Source of the DNA: Candidatus Doudnabacteria bacterium
GTDB taxonomy: Bacteria; Patescibacteriota; Doudnabacteria; UBA920
Length of the DNA: 64,000 nucleotides
NCBI GenBank assembly: GCA_016788665.1
Contig: JAEUSF010000003.1
Span: 35,021-99,020 of the forward strand
Direction of reading: 5' to 3'
Position numbers and translations under genes: made by a program. The notes beneath the pieces were generated by a model. It was not told the origin of the DNA, ran no database searches, and was given only the letters and a program-made list of their open reading frames with translations. Shown here one piece after another: positions 1,227 to 49,692 of this stretch. The stretch's first letter is position 1, and every line of letters begins with the position of its first letter.

Positions 1227-1556
1227 ATGAATTTAAATATAAAAGCAACTAACACGACAGCCACGCCGGCTATAAAGCAGTTTATAGAAGAGAAGCTTAG
1301 TTCTTTGGAAAAATTTTTAAGGCCCGAAGATAAAATAAGGGTTGAGCTCGAGGTGTCAAAAAAACACCATACCGGGTTGGTGCATAGAGCAGAAATTGAC
1401 ATTCAGCCCCATGGGTATTATGCGGACAGTCGGGGTGTAGATTTTTACGCAGCAATGGACCTGGTAATGCCCAAAATTAAGGAACAGTTGGTTAAACAGA
1501 AGGACAAAAAGGTGAGTGAAAGGCGAAAGGTTAAAAGACTTGGAAAGGGTGCATAA
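1227..1556 (+). CDS. hpf: Ribosome hibernation promoting factor (HPF/RaiA, sigma-54 modulation protein family)
   Basis: MNLNIKATN...TPAIKQFIEEKL matches the HPF N-terminus. Basic C-terminal tail. The track ORF starts at an upstream GTG (1194); the internal ATG at 1227 is preferred. Confidence 0.75.
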   Translation: MNLNIKATNTTATPAIKQFIEEKLSSLEKFLRPEDKIRVELEVSKKHHTGLVHRAEIDIQPHGYYADSRGVDFYAAMDLVMPKIKEQLVKQKDKKVSERRKVKRLGKGA

Positions 1557-1681
1557 TAAAATATAATTTTTAATCAAGGGGAATCCTATCTTTTTTTAGG
1601 ATTCCCCTTGTTCTTTGGCGTTTTGGGTGGTATAATTAGACATCTAAAAGCAATTATTTCAGTAAATAAACCGGCTAAAAC

Positions 1682-4426
1682 ATGTCATTTTTTACAAGAA
1701 TTTTTGGAGGGGAAAAAACCGCTCTAGAAAAGTACGGTAGCGAGCTTAATAAAATCAACGGCTTTAAAGAAGACGTTTTTAAACTTACCCAAGAAGAAAT
1801 ACAGTCCGAAATTTCAAATTTTAAATTGCAAATTGCAAAATATTCTGACCGGGATTCCATACTCACTGAGCTAAAAAATATTAGGCCGAGGGTTTTTGCT
1901 TTAGTTAGGGAAGCTGCGGCCAGAAGTATTGGTCAAACGCATTATGATGTGCAAATGCTTGGGGGATTGGCCTTAAGCGATGGTCGGATCGCAGAAATGA
2001 AAACTGGTGAAGGAAAAACTTTGACCGCCACCGCGCCCATGGTTTTGTATGCCCTGGCGGGTAGGGGCGCGCATTTGGTTACGGTAAACGACTATTTAGC
2101 CAGGTGGCAGGCCAGTCTTATGGGGCCCGTTTATAAATATTTAGGTTTGAGTGTTGCTTCAATTCAGCACGAAGCTTCTTTTTTATATGACCCAAGTTAC
2201 CAGCCTGGTGAGGATGAGCTGAAAAAAATGGAAGGCGAAGTTCAGGGTTTGGTTATGGACGTAAAGCATATGAGGAAGGTTGACCGTAAGGAGGCTTATA
2301 TGGCCGATATAACTTACGGCACTAACAACGAATTTGGGTTTGACTATCTGCGCGACAACATGGCTCAGCATACTATGCAGCTTGCACAGAGAGATTTGTT
2401 TTTTGCCATTGTTGACGAAGTTGACTCTATTTTAATCGACGAAGCTAGGACGCCGCTTATAATATCTGCGCCGGATACCGAGCCCACAAGTAAATATTAC
2501 GATTTTGCTAAATTGGTAGAAAAGCTCGATGATAAGACGGATTACATAATAGATGAAAAGAAAAAAGCTACAAGTTTAACCGATGCTGGTATAAATAAAA
2601 TTGAAAAGCTTTTGAATGTGCCGAATATCTATGACACTTCAAAGGGGGTTACTACAATTCATCATATAGAGCAGTCGCTTAGAGCAAAAACCTTGTTTAA
2701 AAAGGATCGTGACTATGTTGTTAGGGAAGGTGAGATAGTTATTGTCGACGAGTTTACCGGTCGTATGATGTTTGGGAGGAGATATAGCGAAGGATTGCAT
2801 CAGGCTATCGAAGCTAAGGAAAACGTAGAAATTCAGGCAGAAAGTAAAACTCTGGCAACAATTACGTTTCAAAACTTGTTTAGGCTATATTGGTTTTTAG
2901 CTGGTATGACTGGAACGGCAAAAACGGAAGAGGAAGAATTTTTCAAAATTTACAGGCTTCAGGTGGAGCAGGTGCCTACCAACAAACCCAATGCGCGTTT
3001 GGATGGGCATGATATGGTTTATAAAACCGAAGACGCCAAGTTTAAGGCCATTGCCAAAGAAGTTAAAGAGCGCAATAAAAAGGGTCAGCCTGTTTTAATT
3101 GGTACAGTCAGCATAGCCAAGAACGAAATATTAGCAGAGCATTTAAAGTCGGAAGGTTTGAAATTTGAAATTTTGAATGCTAAAAATCATGAAAGGGAGG
3201 CTAATATTATTTCTCAGGCGGGACGCTTGGGTCAAATAACTTTGGCTACCAACATTGCTGGTCGTGGCGTGGACATTTTACTTGGTGGAAACCCCCCGGA
3301 CTTGGAAGAGGCGGAAGAAGTAAAAAAGGCAGGCGGTCTGCATGTGCTTGGTACGGAAAGACATGAGTCAAGGCGCATAGATAATCAGCTCCGAGGACGC
3401 AGCGGTAGGCAGGGGGATCCGGGCAGTAGTCAATTTTTTGTCTCTATGGAAGATGACCTAATGCGTTTGTTCGGCGGTGAACGTATGAAGTCTTTAATGA
3501 CAAGCTTAGGTTTGCCAGATGATCAGCCTATTGAAGCGAGATTGGTTTCCCGGTCAATTGAATCAGCTCAGAAGAAAATTGAAGGACTGAATTTTGACAC
3601 TCGAAAACATGTTTTAGAATTTGACGATGTCTTAAACCATCAGCGCAACCATATATACAAATTAAGAAGGAAATATTTGCCGGGCAGAGGCGCAGGGGCT
3701 GAAAAGCAAGAAGAGGCGAATGATGAGGGCGGACTAAAATCGGAATATCTGGAACTTGTTGAAAAAGAAATAGAAACTGTAGTAAAGTTTAATTTGAATG
3801 CCGGGGAACACGGGTCTTTGGAAACTCCAGAAGACAGGATTTTAAAAGAGCTGGGCACAATGATGCCAATAGATGCCGAGTTAACGGTAAAAGTTAAAGA
3901 GAGCGGTAAGAATTCGGCAGACAAAGAATTCGCAATTATAGATACTTTAACAGCATTTGCCACAGAGCTTTTGGAAAAAAGGCAAAAAGATATGGGTACG
4001 GAAGTCTTTGACGGTGCAATGCGGTTTATTGCTCTTTCCAGCATAGACCAACTGTGGATGGAACATTTGGATACCATGGACCATTTAAGAGACTCTGTAA
4101 GGCTAAGGGGATATGGACAGCGTGACCCGTTAGTGGAATACAAAAAAGAAGGTCATGAGCTGTTTAAGAATTTGCTGGAGGAAATTAATAAGCAAATGGT
4201 TTACACTGTGTTTAAGATTCAAGCTCAAATAGAGGCTTCTCCAGCGCCGGCTGCACGGTTAGTCACAAATAAGTCGGATTCTGCTGATTCTGGCCAGCTA
4301 ACGAGCGAAAGCGGCAGTGTGGGGAGGAATGACCCTTGCCCGTGTGGAGCTATTAATCCAGAAACAGGTAAGGCCTACAAGTATAAACGATGCGGTATGA
4401 TAAATGCTCCGTATCATAAAAAATAG
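1682..4426 (+). CDS. secA: Preprotein translocase ATPase SecA
   Basis: 914 aa. DEAD-like motor motifs (MKTGEGKTL, DEVDSILIDEART, TNIAGRGVDI). C-terminal zinc-binding tail CPCG...C. Confidence 0.95.
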   Translation: MSFFTRIFGGEKTALEKYGSELNKINGFKEDVFKLTQEEIQSEISNFKLQIAKYSDRDSILTELKNIRPRVFALVREAAARSIGQTHYDVQMLGGLALSDGRIAEMKTGEGKTLTATAPMVLYALAGRGAHLVTVNDYLARWQASLMGPVYKYLGLSVASIQHEASFLYDPSYQPGEDELKKMEGEVQGLVMDVKHMRKVDRKEAYMADITYGTNNEFGFDYLRDNMAQHTMQLAQRDLFFAIVDEVDSILIDEARTPLIISAPDTEPTSKYYDFAKLVEKLDDKTDYIIDEKKKATSLTDAGINKIEKLLNVPNIYDTSKGVTTIHHIEQSLRAKTLFKKDRDYVVREGEIVIVDEFTGRMMFGRRYSEGLHQAIEAKENVEIQAESKTLATITFQNLFRLYWFLAGMTGTAKTEEEEFFKIYRLQVEQVPTNKPNARLDGHDMVYKTEDAKFKAIAKEVKERNKKGQPVLIGTVSIAKNEILAEHLKSEGLKFEILNAKNHEREANIISQAGRLGQITLATNIAGRGVDILLGGNPPDLEEAEEVKKAGGLHVLGTERHESRRIDNQLRGRSGRQGDPGSSQFFVSMEDDLMRLFGGERMKSLMTSLGLPDDQPIEARLVSRSIESAQKKIEGLNFDTRKHVLEFDDVLNHQRNHIYKLRRKYLPGRGAGAEKQEEANDEGGLKSEYLELVEKEIETVVKFNLNAGEHGSLETPEDRILKELGTMMPIDAELTVKVKESGKNSADKEFAIIDTLTAFATELLEKRQKDMGTEVFDGAMRFIALSSIDQLWMEHLDTMDHLRDSVRLRGYGQRDPLVEYKKEGHELFKNLLEEINKQMVYTVFKIQAQIEASPAPAARLVTNKSDSADSGQLTSESGSVGRNDPCPCGAINPETGKAYKYKRCGMINAPYHKK

Positions 4427-7755: not shown

Positions 7756-10294
7756 AGTTTTGTTGTCAAAATATATAAAGCCTGAACGTTACAAGCTTTC
7801 AGTTAAGCCCAGTTTGGAAAATTTTGTTTTTGAAGGTAAAGAAATGGTGTATTTGGAATTGTTAAAACCCGTTAAAGAAATTACACTCCATGCAAAAGAT
7901 TTGAAAGTTACTGACGTAGAATTTAAAATTCGAAATTTAAAATTTCAAACGGTAAAAATTAAATACGACACAAAAGCTGAAACTGTGACTTTTGTGTTTA
8001 GTAAGGCATTGCTAAAAGGTAAGGGTGAGTTGTCTTTAAAGTTTAAAGGCGTGTTAAATGACTTTATGCGTGGTTTTTACCGAGGCAGTTACACGCACGA
8101 AGGTAAAAAACGTTATTTGGCTACCACCCAGTTTGAAGCGACTGATGCCCGCAGAGCTTTTCCATGTTTTGATGAACCGGCATTAAAAGCGGTATTTGAG
8201 GTTAGTATTATTTTGCCTTCTGGTATGACCGCTATTTCCAACACCGTTGAAACCTCAGTTAAAGAGCATGGAGGTGGTTATAAAATAGTAGAATTTTCCC
8301 CAAGTCCGAAAATGTCTACATATTTACTTGCATTTATAGTGGGGGATTTTGAACATATTGAGGGTAAAACAAAAAGGGGTGTAACTGTAAGAGTTTTTGT
8401 TACACCCGGGAAAAGGCATCAGGCCAAATTTGCTTTAGAGTGCGGTATAAAGACTTTGGATTTTTATGAAAAATATTTCGATATAAAATATCCTTTGCCA
8501 ATAATGGATATGATTGCAATTCCAGATTTCTCCCATGGGGCAATGGAGAATTGGGGCGCGGTGACTTATAGGGAGTCGGCTTTGCTGGTTGATCCTGAAA
8601 ATTCTTCCAGTGCTAACAAGCAGTGGGTGGCTTTGGTTATTGCCCACGAATTAGCTCATCAATGGTTTGGTAATTTGGTCACAATGCATTGGTGGACAGA
8701 TCTTTGGCTTAACGAAGGCTTCGCCTCCTATATTGAATATTTGGCTGTGGACCACCTGTTTCCTGCCTGGGACATCTGGACTCAGTTTGCTTATGTAGAT
8801 TTGGGAGCGGCTTTGCGCCTCGATGGTCTTAAAAATACTCATCCTATAGAAATTGAAGTAAAGCATCCTGACGAAATTGGGGAAATTTTTGACGAAGTTA
8901 GTTACTCTAAAGGCGCAAGTTTGATTCGGATGTTAGCCGATTATTTGGGAGAAAAAAACTTTCGAGATGGGCTTAGATACTATTTAAAAAAGCATGCTTA
9001 TAAAAACACTAGGACCACAGATTTATGGGATGCTTTTGAAGCAGTGTCTAAAAGACCGGTAAAATCTCTTATGCAGAATTGGACCAAAAAAGAGGGTTAC
9101 CCGCTGCTTAAAGTTACAGAGCGTCCTAAAGAAATTGTATTAGAGCAGTCAAGATTTTATATTTCACAAATTTCCAAACGCTCCTATGGTGACAAGACGC
9201 TCTGGCAGATTCCTATTAGTATAAAGTCGGCTGGGCAAAAAAAAGTTTCCAAGATTATACTGGATACAAAGTCGAAAATTATACCGAAGCCAAAAGGCTG
9301 GGTAAAATTTAACACGGAAGAGGCTGGATTCTTTAGGACTGACTATCCGGCCCAAATGCTCAAGCTTTTGCACCCGGCCATTATGCAAAAGAAGCTATCT
9401 GCCGTGGATAGGCTAGGTATTATTCGTGACGCCTTTGCTTTAGCCGAGAGTCAGGAGTTGCCTACTGCCGAAGCTCTGAGACTAGCAGAGAGCTATAAGA
9501 ATGAAACAGATTTTACCGTTTGGACAGAAATTTCTGCTGGTATAAATTCAGTTTACCAATTAATATGTGGACAACCGTACGAGGCCTTGTACAAAAAGAT
9601 GGCCAGTGAAGTTTTTAAGAAACAAGCTCTTTTATTGGGTTTTAGGCCAAAAAAAGGTGAAAGCCATACCGCTGGGTTGCTTCGGAGTTTGTTGCTAAAT
9701 AACTACGGCTCTTTTGGCGGGCAAGAGGTAGTAAAAAAAGCGAAAGAAATTTTTTCATCTGGAAAAGTACCTGCCGATATACGGGGCGTGGTTTATCAGT
9801 TGGTTGCTGAAAGCGGGGGAAAGAAAGAATTTCAAGCTTTGCTAAAGAAATATAAAACTGAAAGCTTAAATGAGGAAAAGAATCGGATAGGAAGGGCGTT
9901 GGCAAATTTTAAGCAGCCAGAAATAGTACGCGACGTTTTAGATTTGTGTTTAAGTGAGCACGTAAGGCTTCAGGACGCCCCGCTAATTTTAGCCTCAGTT
10001 ATGGTTAACCCACATGGAAGGGAAGAGGGTTTTAAATTCTTGAAAAAGAATTGGGGCGAGTTAAGCAGGCGTTATCCTTCCAGTGGGCATATGCTGGCGC
10101 GTGTAATAAAACCTTTGGGGCTATTTTCTTCACAAAAGCATTTAGGTCTTCTAAAAAAGTTTTTTAAGAATAAAAAGTCAGCAGGTCTTGGAAGGGCAAT
10201 TGAGCAAGTATTGGAAAAATGTGAACTTAATGTTTTATGGTTAAGGAACGAAAATATTAAAATAAAAAATTGGCTGGAAAAACAGGTTGGTTAA
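7748..10294 (+). CDS. pepN: Aminopeptidase N (M1 family zinc metallopeptidase)
   Basis: GAMENWG exopeptidase motif and HELAHQWFGNLVT...LWLNEGFASY zinc-binding HEXXH-X18-E. Confidence 0.9.
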   Translation: MNKVLLSKYIKPERYKLSVKPSLENFVFEGKEMVYLELLKPVKEITLHAKDLKVTDVEFKIRNLKFQTVKIKYDTKAETVTFVFSKALLKGKGELSLKFKGVLNDFMRGFYRGSYTHEGKKRYLATTQFEATDARRAFPCFDEPALKAVFEVSIILPSGMTAISNTVETSVKEHGGGYKIVEFSPSPKMSTYLLAFIVGDFEHIEGKTKRGVTVRVFVTPGKRHQAKFALECGIKTLDFYEKYFDIKYPLPIMDMIAIPDFSHGAMENWGAVTYRESALLVDPENSSSANKQWVALVIAHELAHQWFGNLVTMHWWTDLWLNEGFASYIEYLAVDHLFPAWDIWTQFAYVDLGAALRLDGLKNTHPIEIEVKHPDEIGEIFDEVSYSKGASLIRMLADYLGEKNFRDGLRYYLKKHAYKNTRTTDLWDAFEAVSKRPVKSLMQNWTKKEGYPLLKVTERPKEIVLEQSRFYISQISKRSYGDKTLWQIPISIKSAGQKKVSKIILDTKSKIIPKPKGWVKFNTEEAGFFRTDYPAQMLKLLHPAIMQKKLSAVDRLGIIRDAFALAESQELPTAEALRLAESYKNETDFTVWTEISAGINSVYQLICGQPYEALYKKMASEVFKKQALLLGFRPKKGESHTAGLLRSLLLNNYGSFGGQEVVKKAKEIFSSGKVPADIRGVVYQLVAESGGKKEFQALLKKYKTESLNEEKNRIGRALANFKQPEIVRDVLDLCLSEHVRLQDAPLILASVMVNPHGREEGFKFLKKNWGELSRRYPSSGHMLARVIKPLGLFSSQKHLGLLKKFFKNKKSAGLGRAIEQVLEKCELNVLWLRNENIKIKNWLEKQVG

Positions 10295-21988: not shown

Positions 21989-22018
21989 TTGTAAAAAGTT
22001 AGCAAATGTTGTATAATG
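21989..22018 (+). promoter_or_regulatory. Candidate promoter (TTGTAA-18-TATAAT) for the PEP-CTERM gene, followed by a 9-bp-stem 5' UTR hairpin (22027-22062) and GGAGGG RBS
   Basis: Hexamers and the AAATCCTTC/GAAGGATTT inverted repeat read directly. RBS at 22068-22073, ATG at 22077. Confidence 0.35.
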
Positions 22019-22076
22019 CCCTAAACAAATCCTTCAAACCTCGCTAGGTTAAGAAGGATTTTATGTTGGAGGGAAA

Positions 22077-22583
22077 ATGATTCTGTTTGTCATGCTCTTG
22101 GCAGGTAGTATGCTAGGGGCCACTCTCTCGCTCGGTACGGGGCCGACCATAGAGGTTTCGAACTTCTCGGCCGGGACGTCCGAGTTTAGTGTCCAGGTTT
22201 CGCAGCCTGGGTACAACTTTGCTGGAGTAAAAATCCAGCCGCTTGCACCGGGTCTTGACCTGGTACTGAACTCGGCTACAGTGAACGGCAATGTCGCCAC
22301 CGGCTTTTCGGTGGGTTCTTTGGACGGGGCGAAGTACATAGCCCCGGACTCGGCAACGCTGCTGTTGCCCAACTTCGCTGTTGGGACGGTGGTGTTTAAC
22401 CTCACCGCTACAGGTGCGGTCGAGGGACAGAGCCCAAGCCAGCTCTTTATGGTTTTCTTGCAAAACCAGAACAGCTACGGCTTTACGGCGTATAACACCG
22501 CCGATTCTCCGGAGCCTGCAACCTGGGCGCTCGCAGGAGCTGTGCTCCTGGTGCTTGTGGCACTGGGCAAAAAACCTAGTTAG
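22077..22583 (+). CDS. Secreted protein with signal peptide and C-terminal PEP-CTERM-type sorting signal (SPEPATWALAGAVLLVLVALGKKPS*); GC-rich gene, probably foreign
   Basis: N-terminal hydrophobic signal peptide. C-terminus is PEP + hydrophobic helix + KK, as in exosortase substrates. Gene GC is about 57% against about 39% in the flanks. Confidence 0.55.
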   Translation: MILFVMLLAGSMLGATLSLGTGPTIEVSNFSAGTSEFSVQVSQPGYNFAGVKIQPLAPGLDLVLNSATVNGNVATGFSVGSLDGAKYIAPDSATLLLPNFAVGTVVFNLTATGAVEGQSPSQLFMVFLQNQNSYGFTAYNTADSPEPATWALAGAVLLVLVALGKKPS

Positions 22584-22614
22584 CCTTCCAACTTTTGTTC
22601 GGAGGCTTTTTTAT
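22583..22614 (+). terminator. Rho-independent terminator for the PEP-CTERM gene (GCCTTCC...GGAGGC then TTTTTT)
   Basis: Hairpin followed by a T-run immediately after the stop codon. Confidence 0.5.
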
Positions 22615-22652
22615 TTGCAAAAAAATACGCTGGCAACGGTTGTCGCCAGCGT
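22615..22652 (-). terminator. Rho-independent terminator for the minus-strand gene 22680..23177 (ACGCTGGC / GCCAGCGT 8-bp stem, T-run on the minus strand)
   Basis: Perfect 8-bp stem. The A-run on the plus strand is a T-run on the minus strand. Confidence 0.5.
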
Positions 22653-22679
22653 ACAGAAGTTTCGCGAAGAGGGTCGGTA

Positions 22680-23177
22680 CTACTCTTTGAAGATCGTGGG
22701 ATAGGCCTTTTTGGCCTTTTCCCAAGCGTCGACCAGAACCTTGGGCTCCGGCGACTTGAGAGTGAGATCGGTTTCCCGAATTACGCTCTTGAACCGCTCG
22801 CAGTCTTCGGTCTCGAACGGGAAGGCAGCTCCTTCCTTGCATCCCGACGTGACTTCAATTTGGAGGCTCGTCCGGCTGTCTTCCAGCATCCTTCTTACGA
22901 CTTGGATCACGGTTCTTTGCGAACCGATCATACGGTTGATGCTCTGCAGAACTTCATGGTCTCCGAAGACAAGTCCTTTTTCCAGATCCTGGCCGCTGAC
23001 TTTTAGCTTACTCTGGAAGGTTTGGAGCTTTCCGCTCCATTCTTTGATAACCCGGACTTCGTTCCGGGCCGTCTCCAGCCTCATCTTGCCCATTTGGGCA
23101 AGAGGGTCTTCCTGCCCAAAGGCCGCGGAGGCGGCCAATACCAACACCAACCACAACACGATCATAACGCGTTTCAT
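22680..23177 (-). CDS. GC-rich secreted hypothetical protein (signal peptide MKRVMIVLWLVLVLAASAAFGQ, two Cys)
   Basis: Convergent with the PEP-CTERM gene and of similar elevated GC. Its upstream region carries CTCTTCG..CGAAGAG / TTCGCGAA palindromes. Confidence 0.5.
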   Translation of the reverse strand: MKRVMIVLWLVLVLAASAAFGQEDPLAQMGKMRLETARNEVRVIKEWSGKLQTFQSKLKVSGQDLEKGLVFGDHEVLQSINRMIGSQRTVIQVVRRMLEDSRTSLQIEVTSGCKEGAAFPFETEDCERFKSVIRETDLTLKSPEPKVLVDAWEKAKKAYPTIFKE

Positions 23178-23429
23178 TTGCTCTCTCTTCTGGTAGTAGT
23201 GTCTCTTCGTATTCGCGAAGAGCAGGCTGTGGGCCTTCTAAAAGACCCTAAAACTGCTCTTCGCGAAAAATATAGGCCTCCTTATACTTGAGTGTAATTA
23301 TAGCATATTTAGAATAAAAAGTCAATGTGCTCGTACGTACAAAAAAAACTTATAAACATTGGTGTATATGAACCAGCTTAATATTTTAGATTTGGCTAAA
23401 AATATGGTAAAATTAATAATATTTTTGGC

Positions 23430-28221: not shown

Positions 28222-29835
28222 ATGATAAAGTATATAAAAATTTTGGAGTCAGATTTTACAGTTGGCAAAGCAGCTATTATTATTGGGTTTTTTAGTTTTG
28301 CGACAAAACTAGCAGCACTTTTTAGAGAAAGACTGTTTGCTTCTTATTTTGGCCAGGGCCCACTGCTCGATAGTTATTTTTCGGCTTTTCGTATACCGGA
28401 TTTTGTAACAAATTTGTTTGTTTTAAGTACTCTCTCGGTAGCTTTTTTGCCAGTATTTGCTAGGGAAAAAAAAGCCAGCAGGGAAGAAGCGGAAAAGTTT
28501 GCTAACACTTGTTTAGATTTTGGGCTTTTGTTTGTGGGGGCAGTGTGTCTGATTTTATTTGTTTTTTCTAAACCTATGACCCAATATTTGGTTCCGGGTT
28601 TCTCTGGCCAACAGCTACAAGATACGCTAAAGTTAACCCGTTTATTTTTGCTAACTCCAATTATTTTTACAGCTTCAACTATTTTTGGCGGAGTTTTAAA
28701 CGCGAAAAAAAAGTTTATAATAACCAGCTTGGCGCCACTGCTTTATAATTTGGGTATAATTTTCGGGATTGTTTTCTTATTTGGACGTTTTGGCATTTTG
28801 GGGCTAGGATATGGAGTTATTTTAGGGGCCTTGGCCCAGTTATTTGTTCAGGTTTACACGGTATGGTCGGGTGGCTTTTCTTTAAAATGGAGTTTTAATT
28901 CTAAGTTGCCGGCATTCCGCGAAATGTTGCAAATGTATTTGCCAAGAATTTTTACTTTTGACTTGGCAAATGTGACTTTGCTTCTAACCACAATTTTTGC
29001 GTCTTTGGTAGTGCCTGGATCTATAACCGCGGTGAATCAGTCTTTTAACTTACAGTCTGTTCCGATTGGAATATTTGCGTTTGCTTTGTCGTCGGCGGTG
29101 TTTCCGGTTTTTAGCGAACATTTTGCAAATAAAAACGAAATTGGGTATGCCAATAGTTTAAAAAAATCTGTACGTCAAATTTTGTTTCTAATGGTTCCCG
29201 CTACTGTTTTTCTGGTAATTTTTAGAGCTTACGTTGTTAGGCTTGTTTTAGGGGCGGGGAATTTTAGCTGGGAAGACACTGTCACAACTTTTACCTTTTT
29301 AGGTATTTTTGCTTTCTCGCTTGTAAGCCAGAGCCTTACCACTTTGCTTTCCAGGGCTTTTTTTGCAAGACATAATACCAAAACCCCTGTGAAGGCAAAC
29401 TTGGTGTCTGTGGCAATAAACATTGTTTTGTCTTATGTATTGTTTCAGAGGTTGGGTACGGAAGGTTTGGTTTTAGGATTTGTATTTTCTAGCATTTTTA
29501 ATGCATCGTACCTGGCTCTTTCCTTAAGGGATATACTGCGAAAACAGGCAGGTGTTCAGGTGGTTTATGAGTTAGAAAAATTTGTGCTTGTGGGTTTAAA
29601 TAAAATAATTATGTCTTCGGTCATAGGGGGCGCGGTTAGCTACGGCTTAATTTATGCTCTGGAGCCTTTTGTTTACACTAATACTTTTTTTGGTATATTG
29701 GTTCAGGCTGCATTAGCTGGAGCTGGTGGAGTTGCGGTATATTTGTTTGCCTCGTTTAAGTTAGGTTTAGTGGAGGCTCAGGCGGTATATATTGCAGTAA
29801 GTAAACTGCTGCCAAATAAAAAACCCTCTTTTTAA
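28222..29835 (+). CDS. murJ: Lipid II flippase MurJ (MviN)
   Basis: 14-TM MOP-superfamily protein with a MurJ-like N-terminus (FRERLFASYFGQGPLLDSYFSAFRIPDF). Confidence 0.9.
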   Translation: MIKYIKILESDFTVGKAAIIIGFFSFATKLAALFRERLFASYFGQGPLLDSYFSAFRIPDFVTNLFVLSTLSVAFLPVFAREKKASREEAEKFANTCLDFGLLFVGAVCLILFVFSKPMTQYLVPGFSGQQLQDTLKLTRLFLLTPIIFTASTIFGGVLNAKKKFIITSLAPLLYNLGIIFGIVFLFGRFGILGLGYGVILGALAQLFVQVYTVWSGGFSLKWSFNSKLPAFREMLQMYLPRIFTFDLANVTLLLTTIFASLVVPGSITAVNQSFNLQSVPIGIFAFALSSAVFPVFSEHFANKNEIGYANSLKKSVRQILFLMVPATVFLVIFRAYVVRLVLGAGNFSWEDTVTTFTFLGIFAFSLVSQSLTTLLSRAFFARHNTKTPVKANLVSVAINIVLSYVLFQRLGTEGLVLGFVFSSIFNASYLALSLRDILRKQAGVQVVYELEKFVLVGLNKIIMSSVIGGAVSYGLIYALEPFVYTNTFFGILVQAALAGAGGVAVYLFASFKLGLVEAQAVYIAVSKLLPNKKPSF

Positions 29836-30353
29836 ATGGGGTGGGGCAATTGGCCGCTGGGGTTTGCCGGCAGTGCAATGGGCAGGCCCATGTCCTTGCC
29901 CAGCTTGTCGGTAAGAGCTCGCGTCTCGGGGTACTGCTCGCCCTGCCTAAACAGGGCTTCTTGGTAGTTTCCAACAGCGCTGAGCAGGAAACTGAAAATG
30001 TTGGGTGAGAACCGGCCGCTTCTGCTTAGGCTGGTTTTGATGCTCCCTGCGTAGAACACAATGTTCTCGTACGACCTCTTTTCAACCCCCTGGTAAAACT
30101 TGTCACGAAGAGCTTGTAACTCTTCTTCGCTCGTTCCAAGCTTTGCGAGGTCACGAACGCCGGCTTTCGCCATTGTCCGCCAAATTTCGCCAATGGCGAG
30201 AACGGGGTCAGTGACGAGGCCGTCACGAAGTCCGCGCACGAGCTCGCAGGCCTGTGCGAGTTTGGTCTCTCTTTTTTCGCATTTGCTTGCGTACGCCTTT
30301 TGGGGCGCCCGCTAAAATTAGCGCGGTCAGCATGAGCGCTTTTACGAAATTCA
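29832..30353 (-). pseudogene. GC-rich secreted protein gene interrupted by a frameshift at an A6 homopolymer; restored product is about 173 aa with signal peptide MNFVKALMLTALILAGAP
   Basis: The signal-peptide frame (ATG at 30353, RBS AAGGAGGG 6 nt upstream) stops after 48 codons. Deleting one A in AAAAAAG joins it in frame to the 135-aa ORF 29832..30239. Its stop overlaps the murJ stop. Confidence 0.45.
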
Positions 30354-30460
30354 TTTTCTGATCCCTCCTTTTTGGGACTTTGGCTAGTTATCAGGAATTA
30401 TTGTTTAAGTCTAGAGCTTTAAGGCTTTATTCTTTTTGCTTTATTTGGTAAAATTGCCTT

Positions 30461-32589: not shown

Positions 32590-32663
32590 CTATCTATGAC
32601 TCCTCGTTTGATTTTTAGACTATCATTTTCTAAAACAATTTACAAATTTAATGTAAGAGCAAT

Positions 32664-33305
32664 ATGAACAAAAAAATTGGAATAGGTCTTGCTGTGATAG
32701 TAATAACTATCGCAGCTTATATGGTTTTTAATGTGAAAGACAAGGCGAGCGAATCTTCGGTTAAAAGCCAGGACCAGACTCAGATACAGTCTGAAATAAA
32801 GACAGAGTCGGAAAAAAAGTCGCTTAAAAGTTTGGCAATGGCTGGAAAGCCTCAAAAATGCACTTTTACCCAGCAAGTCGAAAATTCTGAAAGTTCGGGC
32901 ACTTATTTCATTTCTACTGGTAAAGTCCGAGGCGATTACAACGTAAAGACTCAAGGGCAAAATATTTCTGGGCATATGATTTTAGACGGGAGTATTATTT
33001 ATACTTGGTCAGATGCACAGACACAGGGTTTTAAGATGGAGGTTTTAGAAGAAAACAATTCCACTTCCCAAACTAACCAAAACATAAATGTGGCCCAGCA
33101 GCTTGCTTATAAGTGCGAAGATTGGAAATTAGACGAAGCAGTATTTTCTTTGCCTAAAGATGTAACTTTTAAAACAATGGCAGAAGCATCTGGTGGGGCC
33201 AATACTATGTCGCAAGACGATATAAAAGCTATGCAGTGTAAGGCATGTGACAATGTGCCTGCTGAAAGCGGGATGCAGTGCAAGCAGGCTTTAAATTGCA
33301 AATAA
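32664..33305 (+). CDS. Secreted/anchored Cys-containing hypothetical protein (213 aa)
   Basis: N-terminal signal anchor. Ser/Gln/Thr-rich linker. Six Cys in the C-terminal part. Confidence 0.5.
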   Translation: MNKKIGIGLAVIVITIAAYMVFNVKDKASESSVKSQDQTQIQSEIKTESEKKSLKSLAMAGKPQKCTFTQQVENSESSGTYFISTGKVRGDYNVKTQGQNISGHMILDGSIIYTWSDAQTQGFKMEVLEENNSTSQTNQNINVAQQLAYKCEDWKLDEAVFSLPKDVTFKTMAEASGGANTMSQDDIKAMQCKACDNVPAESGMQCKQALNCK

Positions 33306-33331
33306 AAAACACCTTTTAAAAAGATGTTTGA

Positions 33332-33481
33332 CTAGAGTTTGCCGATGATTAATTTGGCTGAAATGGCAATCGCTAAAGCTGTTGCAGCTGCGCCAAGCGC
33401 TACTTGGGCTGGAATGTTTAGGAGGAGCAAACTGCCAAGAGCCCCGGCTATGCCGACGCTAATACTAATGCATTTTCGCAT
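33332..33481 (-). CDS. 49-aa hydrophobic peptide (MRKCISISVGIAGALGSLLLLNIPAQVALGAAATALAIAISAKLIIGKL) with a perfect Shine-Dalgarno; not in the ORF track
   Basis: AGGAGG then 6 nt then ATG. Starts 10 nt after the stop of the 103-aa ORF 33492..33803 on the same strand. One to two predicted TM helices rich in small residues. Confidence 0.45.
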   Translation of the reverse strand: MRKCISISVGIAGALGSLLLLNIPAQVALGAAATALAIAISAKLIIGKL

Positions 33482-33491
33482 TCGATTCCTC

Positions 33492-33803
33492 CTAACTACT
33501 CATGCACAGTGGTGGCAGGTCATCCAGTGGCGATTCGCGGAACTTGGTTGGTATGCAACCGTGAGTCAGGATCGCGAGAACATACCAGCAGAATGTAGCA
33601 AACCTAACTGTCCTCCTCTGTCCTGCAATGGATAGCTCCCACGACAGCTCTGCTTCCATTGTGTGGTTTTCCCACTCGAAGACCAAGGCTGTTCTGTTGG
33701 CGAGAAGCGCCAGGTCATGATCGGTTTGTTGTGACATCGGCAAGCTTTCAAACGCTTGCCAACATTTTACAAGGTTGCTATAGCTAAGCCGAAAACTGAA
33801 CAT
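33492..33803 (-). CDS. Hypothetical protein (103 aa, possibly 81 aa from the internal Met MSQQTDHD...), first gene of a two-gene minus-strand unit in a GC-elevated patch
   Basis: ORF in a roughly 50% GC segment. TATAAT lies 8 nt upstream of its ATG on the minus strand. No recognisable domain. Confidence 0.4.
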   Translation of the reverse strand: MFSFRLSYSNLVKCWQAFESLPMSQQTDHDLALLANRTALVFEWENHTMEAELSWELSIAGQRRTVRFATFCWYVLAILTHGCIPTKFRESPLDDLPPLCMSS

Positions 33804-33840
33804 AAATTGATTATACTTTAAATTTGGTAATATTTAAAAT

Positions 33841-33957
33841 ATGAATATATTTAAACAAAGAAAGACTTTGCATAAAATAATGTATGCACTGGCAATAGTT
33901 ATGATATTTAGCATGTTGTTTTTAACACTTGGGCCAACTTTTTTTAGTGGGAACTAA
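33841..33957 (+). CDS. 38-aa single-TM peptide (MNIFKQRKTLHKIMYALAIVMIFSMLFLTLGPTFFSGN), translationally coupled (TAATG) to the downstream PH-domain gene
   Basis: Stop TAA overlaps the ATG of 33957..34427. Hydrophobic core. No clear SD. Confidence 0.3.
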   Translation: MNIFKQRKTLHKIMYALAIVMIFSMLFLTLGPTFFSGN

Positions 33958-47615: not shown

Positions 47616-47995
47616 TAAACCATTCGCTAACGCTCAGGTATATGGCGCGGTCATAAGTCGCGTTTTGAGTGTTGCGACCATTTGTTTATATTGGCGAATG
47701 GTTTATGACCTTACTCGGCCCCGTTTTGGCGGGAGAGTGTTTAGGGCATGAAGGCGACAAATATAATAGCAAAATCGTGACAGATTTTTCCCGCTGTCCG
47801 CGGGATTTATTTTGTTCGTAATTACGCGTGGCGGTCACGCTTAACGTGACTGTTGCCGCGCTTAGCGCGGCGGAGTAGCTGAAGTGTTACCCGCCCGAAC
47901 GTACCCCGCCAGAATGAAACTTTCGGGCTAGCGTTCGGTACGGGCGAGGAGCGTGGGACTCATAAGTCACCTAAGTGATCCGGGGTTTCTATAAT

Positions 47996-48029
47996 ATGTT
48001 TTATGCATATGTTTTATGCATATGTTTTA
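47996..48029. repeat. Tandem repeat, 13-bp unit ATGTTTTATGCAT x2.6
   Basis: Read directly (atgttttatgcat atgttttatgcat atgtttta). Confidence 0.8.
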
Positions 48030-48248
48030 AAGAACACTAAAGGAATTCTATATAAAGGATCAACGGATAATTTAGAATAAAGGAGCATAACTCAAAATTA
48101 TTTAAGTCATTCACGAGAGGTAGGGGAGCATGGATACTTGTGTATTTTGAAGAGTTTAACACTAGGCGAGAGGCGGAAATACGAGAAAAGTATTTTAAGT
48201 CTAAAGCTGGGTGGTTCTATTTTAAAAATACGTTACATCTATTATAAT

Positions 48249-48575: not shown

Positions 48576-48584
48576 TTAGAAAAT

Positions 48585-48612
48585 GCCTCACCTTTATGGT
48601 GGGGCTTTTTCT
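48585..48612 (+). terminator. Rho-independent terminator after tRNA-Asp (GCCTCACC / GGTGGGGC then TTTTT)
   Basis: 8-bp stem including one G-U pair, then a T-run. Confidence 0.5.
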
Positions 48613-48664
48613 ATGGTTAGAGTGGGCGAAAAGTTTATCCGCCGTAGTTTTAGCGAAGGAGGAA

Positions 48665-48683
48665 GCCCCGCCGGTCCCGCCAG
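48665..48683 (+). repeat. 19-nt direct repeat of the tRNA-Asp 3' end (AGCCCCGCCGGTCCCGCCA), 90 bp downstream of the gene; att-like scar
   Basis: Exact copy of tRNA positions 48557-48575. Confidence 0.6.
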
Positions 48684-48825
48684 TAGAAAACCATCTTGCT
48701 TAAGATGGTTATTAGGGCCTAGGCAGGTTAGAGCTGCGGCTGAAACTATATGCTAAAATTATCCTATCAGCCCAAGAGAAAATCAAAGCCTTAAAAGAAG
48801 TAGCTAAAATATTAAGATAAAACTT

Positions 48826-49692
48826 ATGGTTGAGTATAAAAAGGGAGTCGGAATAAATTTTACAGACATACTAAAAGAAAAGCGTATTGAAAAGCAAGAA
48901 ACAATGGCCATACCCGAAACTCTTTCAGGTCAAGAGGTGGCAGATTTATTTCAAAAGGCTTACGCTGAACTAACTTTGAATATCAAGGAGCATTTAGTTG
49001 ATTCCAATGTCATACTAACTACAGCAGGATTGAAGGCTCAAACCGAATTTTTTGTAGATATAAAAGGCGAGGAGGATGCTGCCGGAGTGCAAGTACAGGT
49101 TAACAAACTAAATGAACTATTCAAGATACTAAATCCAGAGATTAAATTTTCTATGGTAAAAAAATCTATAAGTCCGCCTCGTAGAGGTAAGCGACAAATG
49201 GTTTCTATACAGAGCTTATTAGGTGCTGAAAGAGTTAGTAAAATCAGCAAAATTCCTGGCGTTATCCCTTTTGATAAAAGTACTGGTTGGGACGGTTTTG
49301 TTAAATGGCGTAGTAGCATTGCGAAAAACTTTGGTGCTCTCCAAGAAACAGGAACAAAACCTTTTGTAGACGACGAAGCATATACAAATGTATTAGCTGG
49401 CTTAATGAAAGGTTATCCTGATACAGCGATTTACGATTTTGCTGAGTGGTTCCCAACTGACAGATCAAAAGGTATGCAAGATTCGGAAATCCCATTTACT
49501 GGCTTATATTCAGAAGCTGAACCCAATTACGATTTTTACCCAGAACACGCTAATAATCCCGATATTAAAGAAAATATACAGCAAGCAGGTAAAATTTTGC
49601 AGCAATTTTACGAAAGTGATTGGCATAAACAAATAACGCAGGAATTACAGCATCATAAACGAAACGATAGCTGGCAAGTAGGAGGTGGGTAA
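48826..49692 (+). CDS. Hypothetical protein (288 aa)
   Basis: Long ORF downstream of the tRNA hotspot, no recognisable motif. Confidence 0.45.
   Translation: MVEYKKGVGINFTDILKEKRIEKQETMAIPETLSGQEVADLFQKAYAELTLNIKEHLVDSNVILTTAGLKAQTEFFVDIKGEEDAAGVQVQVNKLNELFKILNPEIKFSMVKKSISPPRRGKRQMVSIQSLLGAERVSKISKIPGVIPFDKSTGWDGFVKWRSSIAKNFGALQETGTKPFVDDEAYTNVLAGLMKGYPDTAIYDFAEWFPTDRSKGMQDSEIPFTGLYSEAEPNYDFYPEHANNPDIKENIQQAGKILQQFYESDWHKQITQELQHHKRNDSWQVGGG

Follow-up and report, generated by a model that had tools for sequence, protein, structure and literature searches.

The locus described here raises two questions: are two short open reading frames (ORFs) on the minus strand of a bacterial contig genuine genes, and what might their products do together? 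Both lie in a 64-kb stretch of DNA, which as a whole we call the window, from Candidatus Doudnabacteria of the Candidate Phyla Radiation (CPR), whose genome has a GC (guanine plus cytosine) content of 39%; the plus strand holds almost all long ORFs of the window. An earlier reading of the letters alone, the original prediction, had described a minus-strand unit in a patch of roughly 50% GC, in which a 103-amino-acid (aa) protein is followed 10 nucleotides (nt) later by a hydrophobic 49-aa peptide, and had interpreted the two as a toxin/immunity or bacteriocin-like pair. We named the product of gene 1 C103, that of gene 2 C49, and the convergent gene p213; L-numbers denote fetched comparison loci (88 in total). 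Comparison with one of these loci indicates that both ORFs are coding and conserved, and that their order, spacing, Shine-Dalgarno (SD) sequence, −10 position and terminator are conserved as well. The pair is probably a lineage-restricted two-gene operon for two small membrane proteins that act together as an accessory module.

The anatomy of the unit agreed with its initial description. The minus-strand arrangement with its 10-nt gap was found, with a promoter and a terminator of its own and with a homologous pair in locus L083; AGGAGG followed after 6 nt by ATG precedes the 49-codon ORF as reported, and the AGGAGG is kept in the homologous unit. The patch measured a GC content of 0.51 across 33400-33699 against a window mean of 0.391 (sd 0.055, 200-nt windows), and the hairpin noted at 33309-33330, between the unit and the convergent gene starting at 32664, has a 10-bp stem and a 3-nt loop. 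The features of the unit, in the order in which it would be transcribed, are:

33810..33838, minus strand: sigma-70-like promoter, TTTAAA (33838-33833), 17 nt, TATAAT (33815-33810), 10/12 matches
33492..33803, minus strand: gene 1 (C103), ORF of 103 aa, stop codon TAG at 33494-33492
33493-33488, minus strand: Shine-Dalgarno AGGAGG of gene 2, overlapping the TAG stop of C103, with ATG 6 nt on
33491-33482, minus strand: intergenic gap of 10 nt between the C103 stop and the C49 ATG
33332..33481, minus strand: gene 2 (C49), ORF of 49 aa, MRKCISISVGIAGALGSLLLLNIPAQVALGAAATALAIAISAKLIIGKL, ATG at 33481
33299..33330, minus strand: intrinsic-terminator-like element, hairpin AAACAUCUUUU-UAA-AAGGUGUUU (33330-33309), then UUUUUUAUUUG (33309-33299)
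32664-33305, plus strand: convergent gene p213, its stop codon overlapped by the terminator-like element of the unit

Conservation of the pair in a second genome

Locus L083, a Logan assembly of SRR12901019, was found through homologs of the neighbouring gene p213, for which a protein search returned two closer homologs (59% and 57% identity). It is the closest relative seen: LepA is 97% identical over the C-terminal 118 residues present on the contig, and the small neighbouring ORF N38, described below, is 92% identical. Between its p213 and N38-bPH genes L083 carries both ORFs on the minus strand and in the same order. The C103 homolog (1588..1887, minus strand) has 99 aa and is 40% identical over 94 residues (tblastn E = 1e-24), and the C49 homolog (1423..1572, minus strand) has exactly 49 aa, is 41% identical (E = 3e-10) and shares identical termini with C49, MR... 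and ...GKL. The DNA of the two units can hardly be aligned, the best blastn match being 73% over 55 nt, and in tblastx the sense frames of C103 and C49 scored 103 and 52 bits while their antisense shadows scored 56 and 33 bits. Nucleotide identity at the three codon positions and the proportions of nonsynonymous (pN) and synonymous (pS) differences from L083 were:

C103: codon positions 1/2/3, 0.58/0.60/0.34; pN, 0.41; pS, 0.82
C49: codon positions 1/2/3, 0.59/0.73/0.33; pN, 0.34; pS, 0.74

Because the homologs are conserved, third positions are randomised and pN lies well below pS, we conclude that both ORFs are protein-coding and under purifying selection. The flanking genes are equally saturated between the two genomes (pS 0.57-0.86), and the nonsynonymous divergence (dN) of the pair is 0.46-0.58 compared with 0.06-0.42 for neighbouring genes, so that the pair evolves faster. 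On this comparison C103 and C49 are real conserved genes that were inherited together with their neighbours. The original prediction had tied its case to conservation of the small ORF in related genomes, which we recovered in one relative, L083.

The pair is otherwise nearly invisible to database searches. C49 had zero matches in a word-indexed search of 5.8 billion proteins and in an exhaustive phmmer search of 1.84 billion representatives; the L083 copy was never called as a gene and is therefore absent from protein sets, which explains these null results. No relative of C103 appeared in the word-indexed protein search, the GTDB genomes or the JGI metagenomes, and the first of these results is a false negative: that search needs an exact 5-residue word in common, and the two homologs have none. 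A JGI metagenome scan with the concatenated flanking proteins was empty, viral contigs searched with single sequences and profiles gave no match to the pair, and phage and plasmid DNA matched only the AT-rich promoter spacer. Profiles of both families, run against six-frame ORFs of the window and of the 88 fetched loci, matched nowhere but in the window and L083; C103 and C49 were absent from all 16 related GTDB loci and from other p213 contexts. A scan based on LepA placed the window in Patescibacteria, near Candidatus Doudnabacteria. The window proteins stand in GenBank as a Candidatus Doudnabacteria metagenome-assembled genome under locus tags JNN11_; numbering from a gene of another GC-rich island, A1 (MBL8030026), puts p213 at MBL8030034, the bPH gene is MBL8030035, and the protein collection holds no version of C103, C49 or N38. 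Judging by these accession numbers and this absence, C103 and C49, and the conserved N38 next to them, appear to be missing from the public GenBank annotation. The case shows CPR small membrane proteins escaping annotation and protein-database searches alike.

We also computed coding statistics from the single sequence. AGGAGG occurs 13 times in the window, near a composition expectation of about 17 (our estimate), and an ATG at SD spacing follows 3 of the 13 copies; the "perfect SD" alone is therefore not statistically remarkable. Dinucleotide shuffles of the GC-rich island yielded an ORF of at least 103 codons in 7% of cases, and in 1% when the 5′ ATG was fixed. The 49-aa product proved as hydrophobic and as rich in small residues as had been predicted, with a GRAVY (grand average of hydropathy) value of +1.47 that was equalled by 0 of 4009 random ORFs, and its gene has 3-nt periodicity in both copies (chi2 22.2, p = 0.0013 in the window; chi2 22.1 in L083). 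GC at third codon positions (GC3) is high in both copies of C103, at 0.57 and 0.52 versus about 0.31-0.41 for neighbours. As this elevation persists despite saturated synonymous divergence, the GC-richness is maintained and is not the fading signature of an import. A plus-strand ORF of 98 aa (33339-33635) was considered as the true gene and rejected, having no family match and lower tblastx scores in the plus-strand frames than in the sense frames.

Expression signals and RNA structure

The signals around the two ORFs compare as follows (window first, L083 second):

Promoter: TTTAAA-17-TATAAT; TTTATA-17-TATAAT
Gap between −10 box and gene 1 ATG: 6 nt; 7 nt
Start codon of gene 1: ATG; ATG
AGGAGG relative to the gene 1 stop: overlapping TAG; 5 nt after TAA
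Gap between AGGAGG and gene 2 ATG: 6 nt; 4 nt
Terminator: hairpin with GGTGTTTTTTATTT tail; hairpin with GGTGTTTTTTTATTT tail

Because the −10 box ends 6 nt before it, transcription is predicted to start at the A of the ATG at 33803 or at an adjacent nucleotide, and from this placement the gene 1 mRNA would be leaderless. The promoter overlaps the promoter region of N38 in a 37-nt spacer. The native genes, represented by 42 long plus-strand genes, are nearly SD-free, with a 4-mer core in 1/42 and AGGAGG in 0/42. A −10-like hexamer ends 6-9 nt upstream of the ATG in 9 of the 42, with a peak at 7 nt, so that leaderless mRNAs are apparently frequent in the genome; this suggests that leaderless or SD-independent initiation is widespread in this Doudnabacteria genome. 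We regard the SD of gene 2 as functional because its AGGAGG was retained in a short spacer while synonymous sites became saturated. The predicted expression architecture, with a −10 box about 7 nt before an AUG, a near-adjacent second start and a conserved SD, was found in both genomes.

A transcript of about 0.5 kb would accordingly be expected to run from the A of ATG 33803, or an adjacent nucleotide, to the hairpin and U-tract at 33330-33299. Gene 1 would be translated from the leaderless mRNA, seemingly the common native mode, and ribosomes ending gene 1 would reach and unmask the start of gene 2. We infer this translational coupling because gene 2 starts 10 nt past the stop of gene 1 and a strong AGGAGG overlaps that stop. 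The window copy may add an extra lock, in that its SD and AUG would be held in a 9-bp SD/anti-SD hairpin, so that gene 2 would be poorly translated unless gene 1 is. The conserved mechanism would then consist of a leaderless gene 1 and termination-reinitiation coupling into gene 2. Three RNA elements were noted within the unit:

33418..33426, minus strand: anti-SD TCCTCCTAA in gene 2, near codons L19-N22, with perfect 9-bp pairing to TTAGGAGGA (33495-33487)
33511..33515, minus strand: CCACC in the codons of the invariant Leu-Pro-Pro close to the 3′ end of gene 1, able to pair with GGAGG of the SD
33549..33587, minus strand: 8-bp stem TGGTATGT (33587-33580) / GCATACCA (33556-33549) in the codons of W-Y-V and C-I-P

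In the window the anti-SD pairing encloses the SD and AUG in a local fold of -36.8 kcal/mol (z = -2.73). The anti-SD match has P = 0.004-0.007 under the null models, and the pairing probabilities of 1.00 for the SD and 0.86 for the AUG were reached by 0/60 shuffles. In a two-sequence consensus computed with RNAalifold, columns 289-293 pair with 312-316 (4/4 pairs in both genomes); in both, the CCNCC of the Leu-Pro-Pro codons lies about 20 nt upstream of its pairing partner, the SD, and this CCACC/GGAGG helix may have a functional role. The 8-bp stem (columns 217-224 with 248-255) flanks the codons of the hydrophobic helix of C103 and has 7/8 pairs identical between the window and L083, the terminal pair changing from U-A to U-G; the synonymous sites read within it (TAT, ATA, TGC) are the same in both genomes, although in a comparison of two sequences its conservation could be a by-product of amino-acid conservation.

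The fold z-score of the whole transcript was -1.76 in the window and -2.49 in L083, and the 5′ 308 nt of the transcribed strand folded no better than shuffles (z = -1.03). An Rfam search of the GC-rich patch found no family at gathering scores or at E <= 10. A known structured RNA in the patch was accordingly rejected, with Rfam empty and no transfer-messenger RNA reported by ARAGORN. We found no covariance-model match or covariation-supported structure, the two-sequence consensus with L083 being weak, and a structured non-coding RNA is not needed because protein-level conservation explains the region. At the 3′ end, the L083 equivalent of the terminator is a CACC..GGTG hairpin with a TTTTTTTATTT tail; the window element was not listed by a consensus terminator scanner, since its stem holds fewer than three G-C pairs.

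The genomic slot and other GC-rich islands

Across the 16 closest GTDB loci the gene order is MurJ-like p537, lepA, a variable gap, N38, bPH, DivIC, PPIase (peptidyl-prolyl isomerase) and a pilin-like gene, and the cargo of the gap differs by lineage. Only L002 among the 16 kept p213, which is followed there by an unrelated GC-rich minus-strand unit. The slot after p213 thus holds a 63-aa ORF and a short SD-led ORF in L002 and an unrelated minus-strand 72-aa signal-peptide ORF in L081 and L082; more distant p213 homologs sit in other contexts. In the L002 unit (8560-8912, minus strand), TTGACA-17-TAAAAT ends 7 nt before the ATG of the 63-aa ORF, and two identical hairpins GACGCCGTTAGAGCGTC, which could form alternative structures around the start site, flank a AGGAGGAGGAG SD and a 27-aa ORF, with a GC-rich terminator next; the unit has no Rfam match. 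A non-coding RNA shared by position with this unit was considered for our locus and rejected, as the architecture is analogous but there is no sequence or Rfam kinship and the small ORF is different. At L086 (1335-2636), from a more distant lineage, a p213 homolog stands between a 113-aa Phage_holin_4_2 protein (PF04020) upstream and a 78-aa weakly MazE-antitoxin-like protein downstream, and p213-family genes may tend to adjoin small accessory modules.

On the other side of the unit, N38 is a 38-aa ORF (MNIFKQRKTLHKIMYALAIVMIFSMLFLTLGPTFFSGN, 33841-33957, plus strand) with one hydrophobic helix, directly upstream of the bPH gene, which starts at 33957. It has tblastn matches at the same position in L001, L003, L005 and L009, L002 has a 33-aa ORF there, and N38 has the look of a genuine gene for a small membrane protein. 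A 26-nt imperfect inverted repeat (32638-32663 / 33806-33831, 77% complementary) lies upstream of the p213 and C103 ATGs. We considered whether it might represent mobile-element ends bracketing p213 and the unit and rejected this, as two similar AT-rich promoters are a simpler account and L002 is without a clear copy.

Three long GC-rich islands of the window are not part of the plus-strand tiling of genes: A (22001-23300), B (29701-30425) and C, the unit itself. In each, an ORF led by an SD encodes a secreted or membrane protein that matched no family significantly, and a strong SD plus ATG at gene starts occurs only in these islands. Their 3′ ends share a short element: the 11-mer TTTTTTATTTG has exactly 3 copies in the 64 kb (0.87 expected), at 22607-22617 (plus), 29813-29823 (minus) and 33299-33309 (minus), which in islands A, B and C respectively supply the U-tract behind the hairpin that terminates the SD-led ORF. 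Beyond this tail the 3′ ends are unlike, and the island C copy overlaps the p213 stop; the L083 tail TTTTTTTATTT is near-identical to the 11-mer. The possibility that the islands are mutual relatives was rejected, there being no significant similarity beyond the shared terminator tail.

Island A (GC up to 0.585) contains two convergent genes, both hypothetical and with strong coding periodicity. A1 (22077-22583, plus strand, 168 aa, MBL8030026) has a signal peptide, a GGAGGG SD and a PEP-CTERM-like C-terminus that is sub-threshold (Pfam E = 0.018); A2 (22680-23177, minus strand, 165 aa, MBL8030027) has a signal peptide. Island B, a GC-rich insertion (up to 0.59), separates the MurJ-like gene from lepA, which in most relatives are only about 35-270 nt apart. 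On its minus strand AAAGGAGGG-8nt-ATG starts a 43-aa signal-peptide-like ORF (30223-30354), which overlaps in another frame a 135-aa ORF (29832-30239) with coding periodicity and a GC3 of 0.65; the two may be one gene split by a frameshift or sequencing error. Elsewhere in the window, 47616-48248 and 48576-48826 (GC up to 0.565) lie between and after tRNA-Met, tRNA-Met and tRNA-Asp genes and contain neither a long ORF nor an Rfam match at E <= 1. A 35-aa ORF at 48140-48247 (MYFEEFNTRREAEIREKYFKSKAGW...) may resemble the C-terminal part of small GIY-YIG (UPF0213-type) proteins.

The two proteins, their function and known systems

For C49 we predict a hairpin of two helices in the membrane, with both termini inside. 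Its AlphaFold2 (AF2) model (predicted local distance difference test, pLDDT, 73.6) has helices at 2-18 and 23-48, with the invariant Pro24 at the turn; an AG-LGS motif and the KL--GKL C-terminus are also invariant, and small-xxx-small motifs are repeated. Its only charges are Lys and Arg near both ends, which suggests the N-in/C-in topology. For C103 the single-sequence AF2 model places helices at 8-19, 28-45 and 65-81, and we predict a helical N-terminal part of about 64 aa, a Cys- and aromatic-rich helix (about 66-84) and a short tail. The helix coincides with an uncharged 19-residue segment preceded by Arg/Lys, with Kyte-Doolittle values of 1.45 in the window and 1.68 in L083, and is a probable transmembrane anchor. 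Trp and Cys dominate the invariant motifs of C103 (KCW, SQQT, WEN-T, EL-WEL, CWYV, GCIP, FR and LPP).

Family searches assigned neither protein. Pfam, NCBIfam and PADLOC gave no match at E <= 1 for C103, C49 or their L083 homologs, in a Pfam set that includes holin, bacteriocin, type I toxin and GhoT/GhoS models; the best PHROGs matches were insignificant (E = 0.11-0.31). Single and profile searches of PDB sequences with the same four proteins returned nothing below E = 0.7, and a fold search of the C103 model against PDB and BFVD gave no match at E <= 0.001. The statement in the original prediction that the upstream partner has no known domain therefore holds for C103 and for its homolog across the families searched, whereas the search of bacteriocin, type I toxin and holin families that it had proposed returned nothing for either peptide or partner. 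Its central interpretation, a toxin/immunity or bacteriocin-like pair, accordingly gained no direct support from Pfam, NCBIfam, PHROGs, PADLOC or PDB.

In the reading that we favour, the two proteins would act jointly in the membrane, with the partner always made first and the tiny peptide second. What we infer on this basis extends to a physical interaction between them, to their membrane topology and to any toxicity. As a pair of small-protein genes it is new, though its general kind is known; it has no detectable relatives beyond two genomes and is a genuine but modest addition with instructive expression features. Few of the small envelope proteins of CPR bacteria, which live attached to other cells, have been characterised; in this setting the pair is a tractable candidate for studying membrane-peptide/partner function and the rules of translation initiation in an SD-poor lineage.

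Several observations weigh against this account. The pair is known from two genomes only, so that the conservation statistics are pairwise, and the transcription start and the coupling are deduced from sequence. C103 has no 3-nt periodicity (chi2 5.2, p = 0.53 in the window; chi2 2.6 in L083), compared with a median chi2 of 18.8 and a 10th percentile of 10.6 for 312-nt chunks of native genes. Its codon-usage frame score of -0.06 is below all native chunks (+0.235 +/- 0.075), and its composition is unusual (Lys 1.9% versus 8.3%; Trp 3.9%, Cys 3.9%). The AF2 model of C103 is of low confidence (pLDDT 61.5), and judged by hydropathy (1.45) its transmembrane helix in the window copy is a borderline case. 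At the RNA level, the strong SD-sequestering hairpin of the window is not kept in L083 (pairing probability of the SD 0.73 versus 0.78 in shuffles; AUG 0.11), for which reason we rejected conserved SD sequestration as a regulatory mechanism, and the CCNCC/GGAGG helix that both genomes share is weak, with 2+2 G-C pairs around a mismatch in a comparison of two sequences. Neither protein could be tied to a toxin, antitoxin, immunity, holin or bacteriocin family among the models searched, the neighbourhood (N38, bPH, DivIC, PPIase and pilin-like genes) is envelope-related and not mobile-element-like, and small membrane proteins with two helices are in many cases harmless subunits or regulators. 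C103 nevertheless illustrates the limits of the single-sequence tests: it fails periodicity and codon usage yet is clearly coding, a relative reached via a neighbouring gene having settled the question, and its family is a cautionary case for periodicity-based gene calling. High GC3 together with the flat periodicity of C103 could possibly reflect selection on the mRNA, which two sequences cannot prove.

The alternative that fares best is a harmless lineage-specific membrane complex, whose members would be subunits or regulators of the neighbouring envelope and division machinery or of the secreted p213; we regard this as a serious contender, if a little short of an even prospect. The unit stands between p213 and the divergent N38-bPH-DivIC cluster in both genomes, its promoter overlaps the N38 promoter region in the 37-nt spacer, purifying selection was kept through saturating synonymous divergence, and most characterised small membrane proteins are regulators or subunits. 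However, the N38-bPH-DivIC cluster is conserved across relatives whether or not they have the pair and therefore does not need it, sister lineages fill the slot with unrelated small units, and the GC content and SD use of the pair are unlike those of the native genes that it would serve.

Within the reading that we favour, the leading candidate for a functional class is a membrane-active peptide, C49, checked by its co-translated partner in an antidote/toxin-like or immunity/effector-like relationship. We hold this tentatively and give it somewhat less weight than the benign complex, with other functions taking the remainder. The gene order, patchy distribution, fast evolution and gated start of the peptide resemble antidote/toxin logic; a benign complex fits the order, the distribution, the fast evolution and the envelope-gene neighbourhood equally well.

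The strict form of this idea, a bacteriocin-like or toxin/immunity pair in which C49 attacks other cells or its producer and C103 is the immunity protein or antidote, seems to us rather unlikely. C49 is small, very hydrophobic and rich in Gly, Ala and Ser. Its first 25 or so residues could also pass for a Sec-type signal peptide (MRK, then a hydrophobic core and NIPA|Q), cleavage of which would leave a 24-aa Lys-containing hydrophobic peptide with the invariant KL--GKL C-terminus. A membrane-anchored partner in the same operon, a patchy distribution and fast evolution would suit a toxin and its immunity protein, and a partner of about 100 aa followed by a two-transmembrane peptide of about 50 aa resembles the ghoS-ghoT order. 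Set against this, models of bacteriocins, immunity proteins, holins, type I toxins, GhoT/OrtT and GhoS gave no match at E <= 1, the candidate signal-peptidase site is not kept in L083 (KVPV|E), and the mature part of C49 would be too hydrophobic to leave the membrane. As read from the sequence, C49 also lacks a Gly-Gly leader motif, no ABC exporter, C39 peptidase or circularisation or modification family was found among the flanking genes scanned, and the helical C103 model is unlike the GhoS fold.

Bolder still, and decidedly improbable, is the idea that the pair is the founding member of a CPR-specific membrane toxin/antidote (or episymbiosis effector/immunity) module, whose dangerous peptide, set behind a strong conserved SD on a GC-rich mRNA in a nearly SD-free genome, could be translated only through coupling to a leaderless partner. 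If it were true, selection on the mRNA itself would account for the elevated GC3 and the flat periodicity of gene 1, and accessory envelope genes of an "expression-insulated" class in reduced genomes would be what islands A, B and C contain; if the pair is an ordinary lineage-specific membrane complex, its wider significance is modest.

We consider it highly improbable that only C49 is translated, from a type I toxin mRNA whose upstream 312 nt are an untranslated leader or non-coding RNA. This reading was favoured after the coding statistics of C103 and three empty protein searches; the SD sits in a stable hairpin, as in many type I toxin mRNAs, and GC-rich patches in AT-rich genomes are often structured RNAs. 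It was refuted by L083, where the C103 frame is conserved as protein (E = 1e-24) with third positions randomised and other frames scoring lower. The Rfam result, the 5′ fold, the weak consensus structure, the absence of a plus-strand promoter inside the island and the non-conserved SD hairpin likewise stand against it. The suggestion that C49 is a type I toxin is thus contradicted: the 312 nt in front of its gene code for a conserved protein and do not form an untranslated leader. Finally, chance ORFs without function in recent foreign DNA or a decaying pseudogene, which the atypical GC, the 7% of shuffles with an ORF of at least 103 codons, the near-chance rate of AGGAGG plus ATG and the apparent lack of GenBank annotation might suggest, can be dismissed almost entirely, since a second genome, with synonymous sites saturated, keeps both ORFs whole and under purifying selection, and GC3 is still elevated in both copies.

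Comparison with known systems places the operon beside several of them without joining it to any. The original prediction had likened C49 to holins, a likeness that did not survive closer inspection: C49 ends in G-K-L directly after helix 2, lacking the charged hydrophilic C-terminal tail of phage holins, there are no lysin or phage genes nearby, the PHROGs matches are insignificant, and viral contigs and phage genomes gave no match. Class II bacteriocin loci, among them those of Gly/Ala-rich circular and leaderless bacteriocins, usually have the bacteriocin gene first and the immunity gene second. The pair shares with them a small Gly/Ala/Leu/Ile-rich peptide beside a small membrane protein in a patchily distributed locus; it differs in its reversed order, in having no leader motif, in the lack of exporter and maturation genes among the scanned neighbours and of Pfam or NCBIfam matches to bacteriocin or immunity families at E <= 1, and in the character of C49, whose hydrophobicity (GRAVY 1.47) is higher and whose positive charge is lower than in typical secreted bacteriocins.

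As a possible counterpart of the type I toxins (hok/sok, tisB/istR, fst, txpA and others), which are hydrophobic membrane peptides of fewer than 60 aa, C49 is 49 aa long, has a GRAVY of 1.47 and is predicted to be helical and membrane-embedded, but it has two helices where most type I toxins have one, and neither C49 nor its L083 homolog matched a described type I toxin family in Pfam or NCBIfam at E <= 1. In hok/mok/sok the translation of the type I toxin depends on an overlapping upstream reading frame. The resemblance here lies in a small hydrophobic peptide with an occluded start, predicted to be translated only via an upstream frame, and in extensive mRNA structure around the SD, at least in the window copy. 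The differences are that the upstream frame encodes a conserved protein of its own, C103, that the two frames are 10-15 nt apart and do not overlap, that the hairpin is not conserved and no family matched, and that no antisense RNA gene or promoter was found: 33300-33800 contains no plus-strand promoter-like site and no Rfam small-RNA or antitoxin match, though a read-through antisense transcript from p213 is possible.

The nearest architectural analogue is the type V system GhoS/GhoT, although architecture alone does not establish membership. The ghoS gene (about 98 aa) lies upstream of the ghoT toxin gene (about 57 aa), and GhoS has a ferredoxin/Cas2-like RNase fold. In Escherichia coli the two form a bicistronic operon with a two-transmembrane inner-membrane toxin (segments of GhoT and the orphan toxin OrtT at residues 6-26 and 34-54), and GhoS is a soluble endoribonuclease that cleaves ghoT mRNA (PMC4344625). 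Our unit matches in part, being bicistronic with a tiny hydrophobic protein for which two transmembrane helices (2-18 and 23-48) are predicted; it differs in that neither ORF nor its L083 homolog has a Pfam match at E <= 1 and that C103 is predicted to be helical with a membrane anchor, where GhoS is soluble.

The mode of expression has parallels of its own. Two reports describe leaderless transcripts as common in mycobacteria, including toxin-antitoxin operons, and 5′-terminal AUGs on SD-containing E. coli mRNAs (PMC8485053, PMC4965119). The C103-C49 unit differs in lying in a genome that is nearly SD-free (1/42), in which its AGGAGG is exceptional; it resembles leaderless mRNAs with an SD-led second cistron in that the −10 box would set the transcription start at the A of the first AUG and an SD-led start follows downstream.

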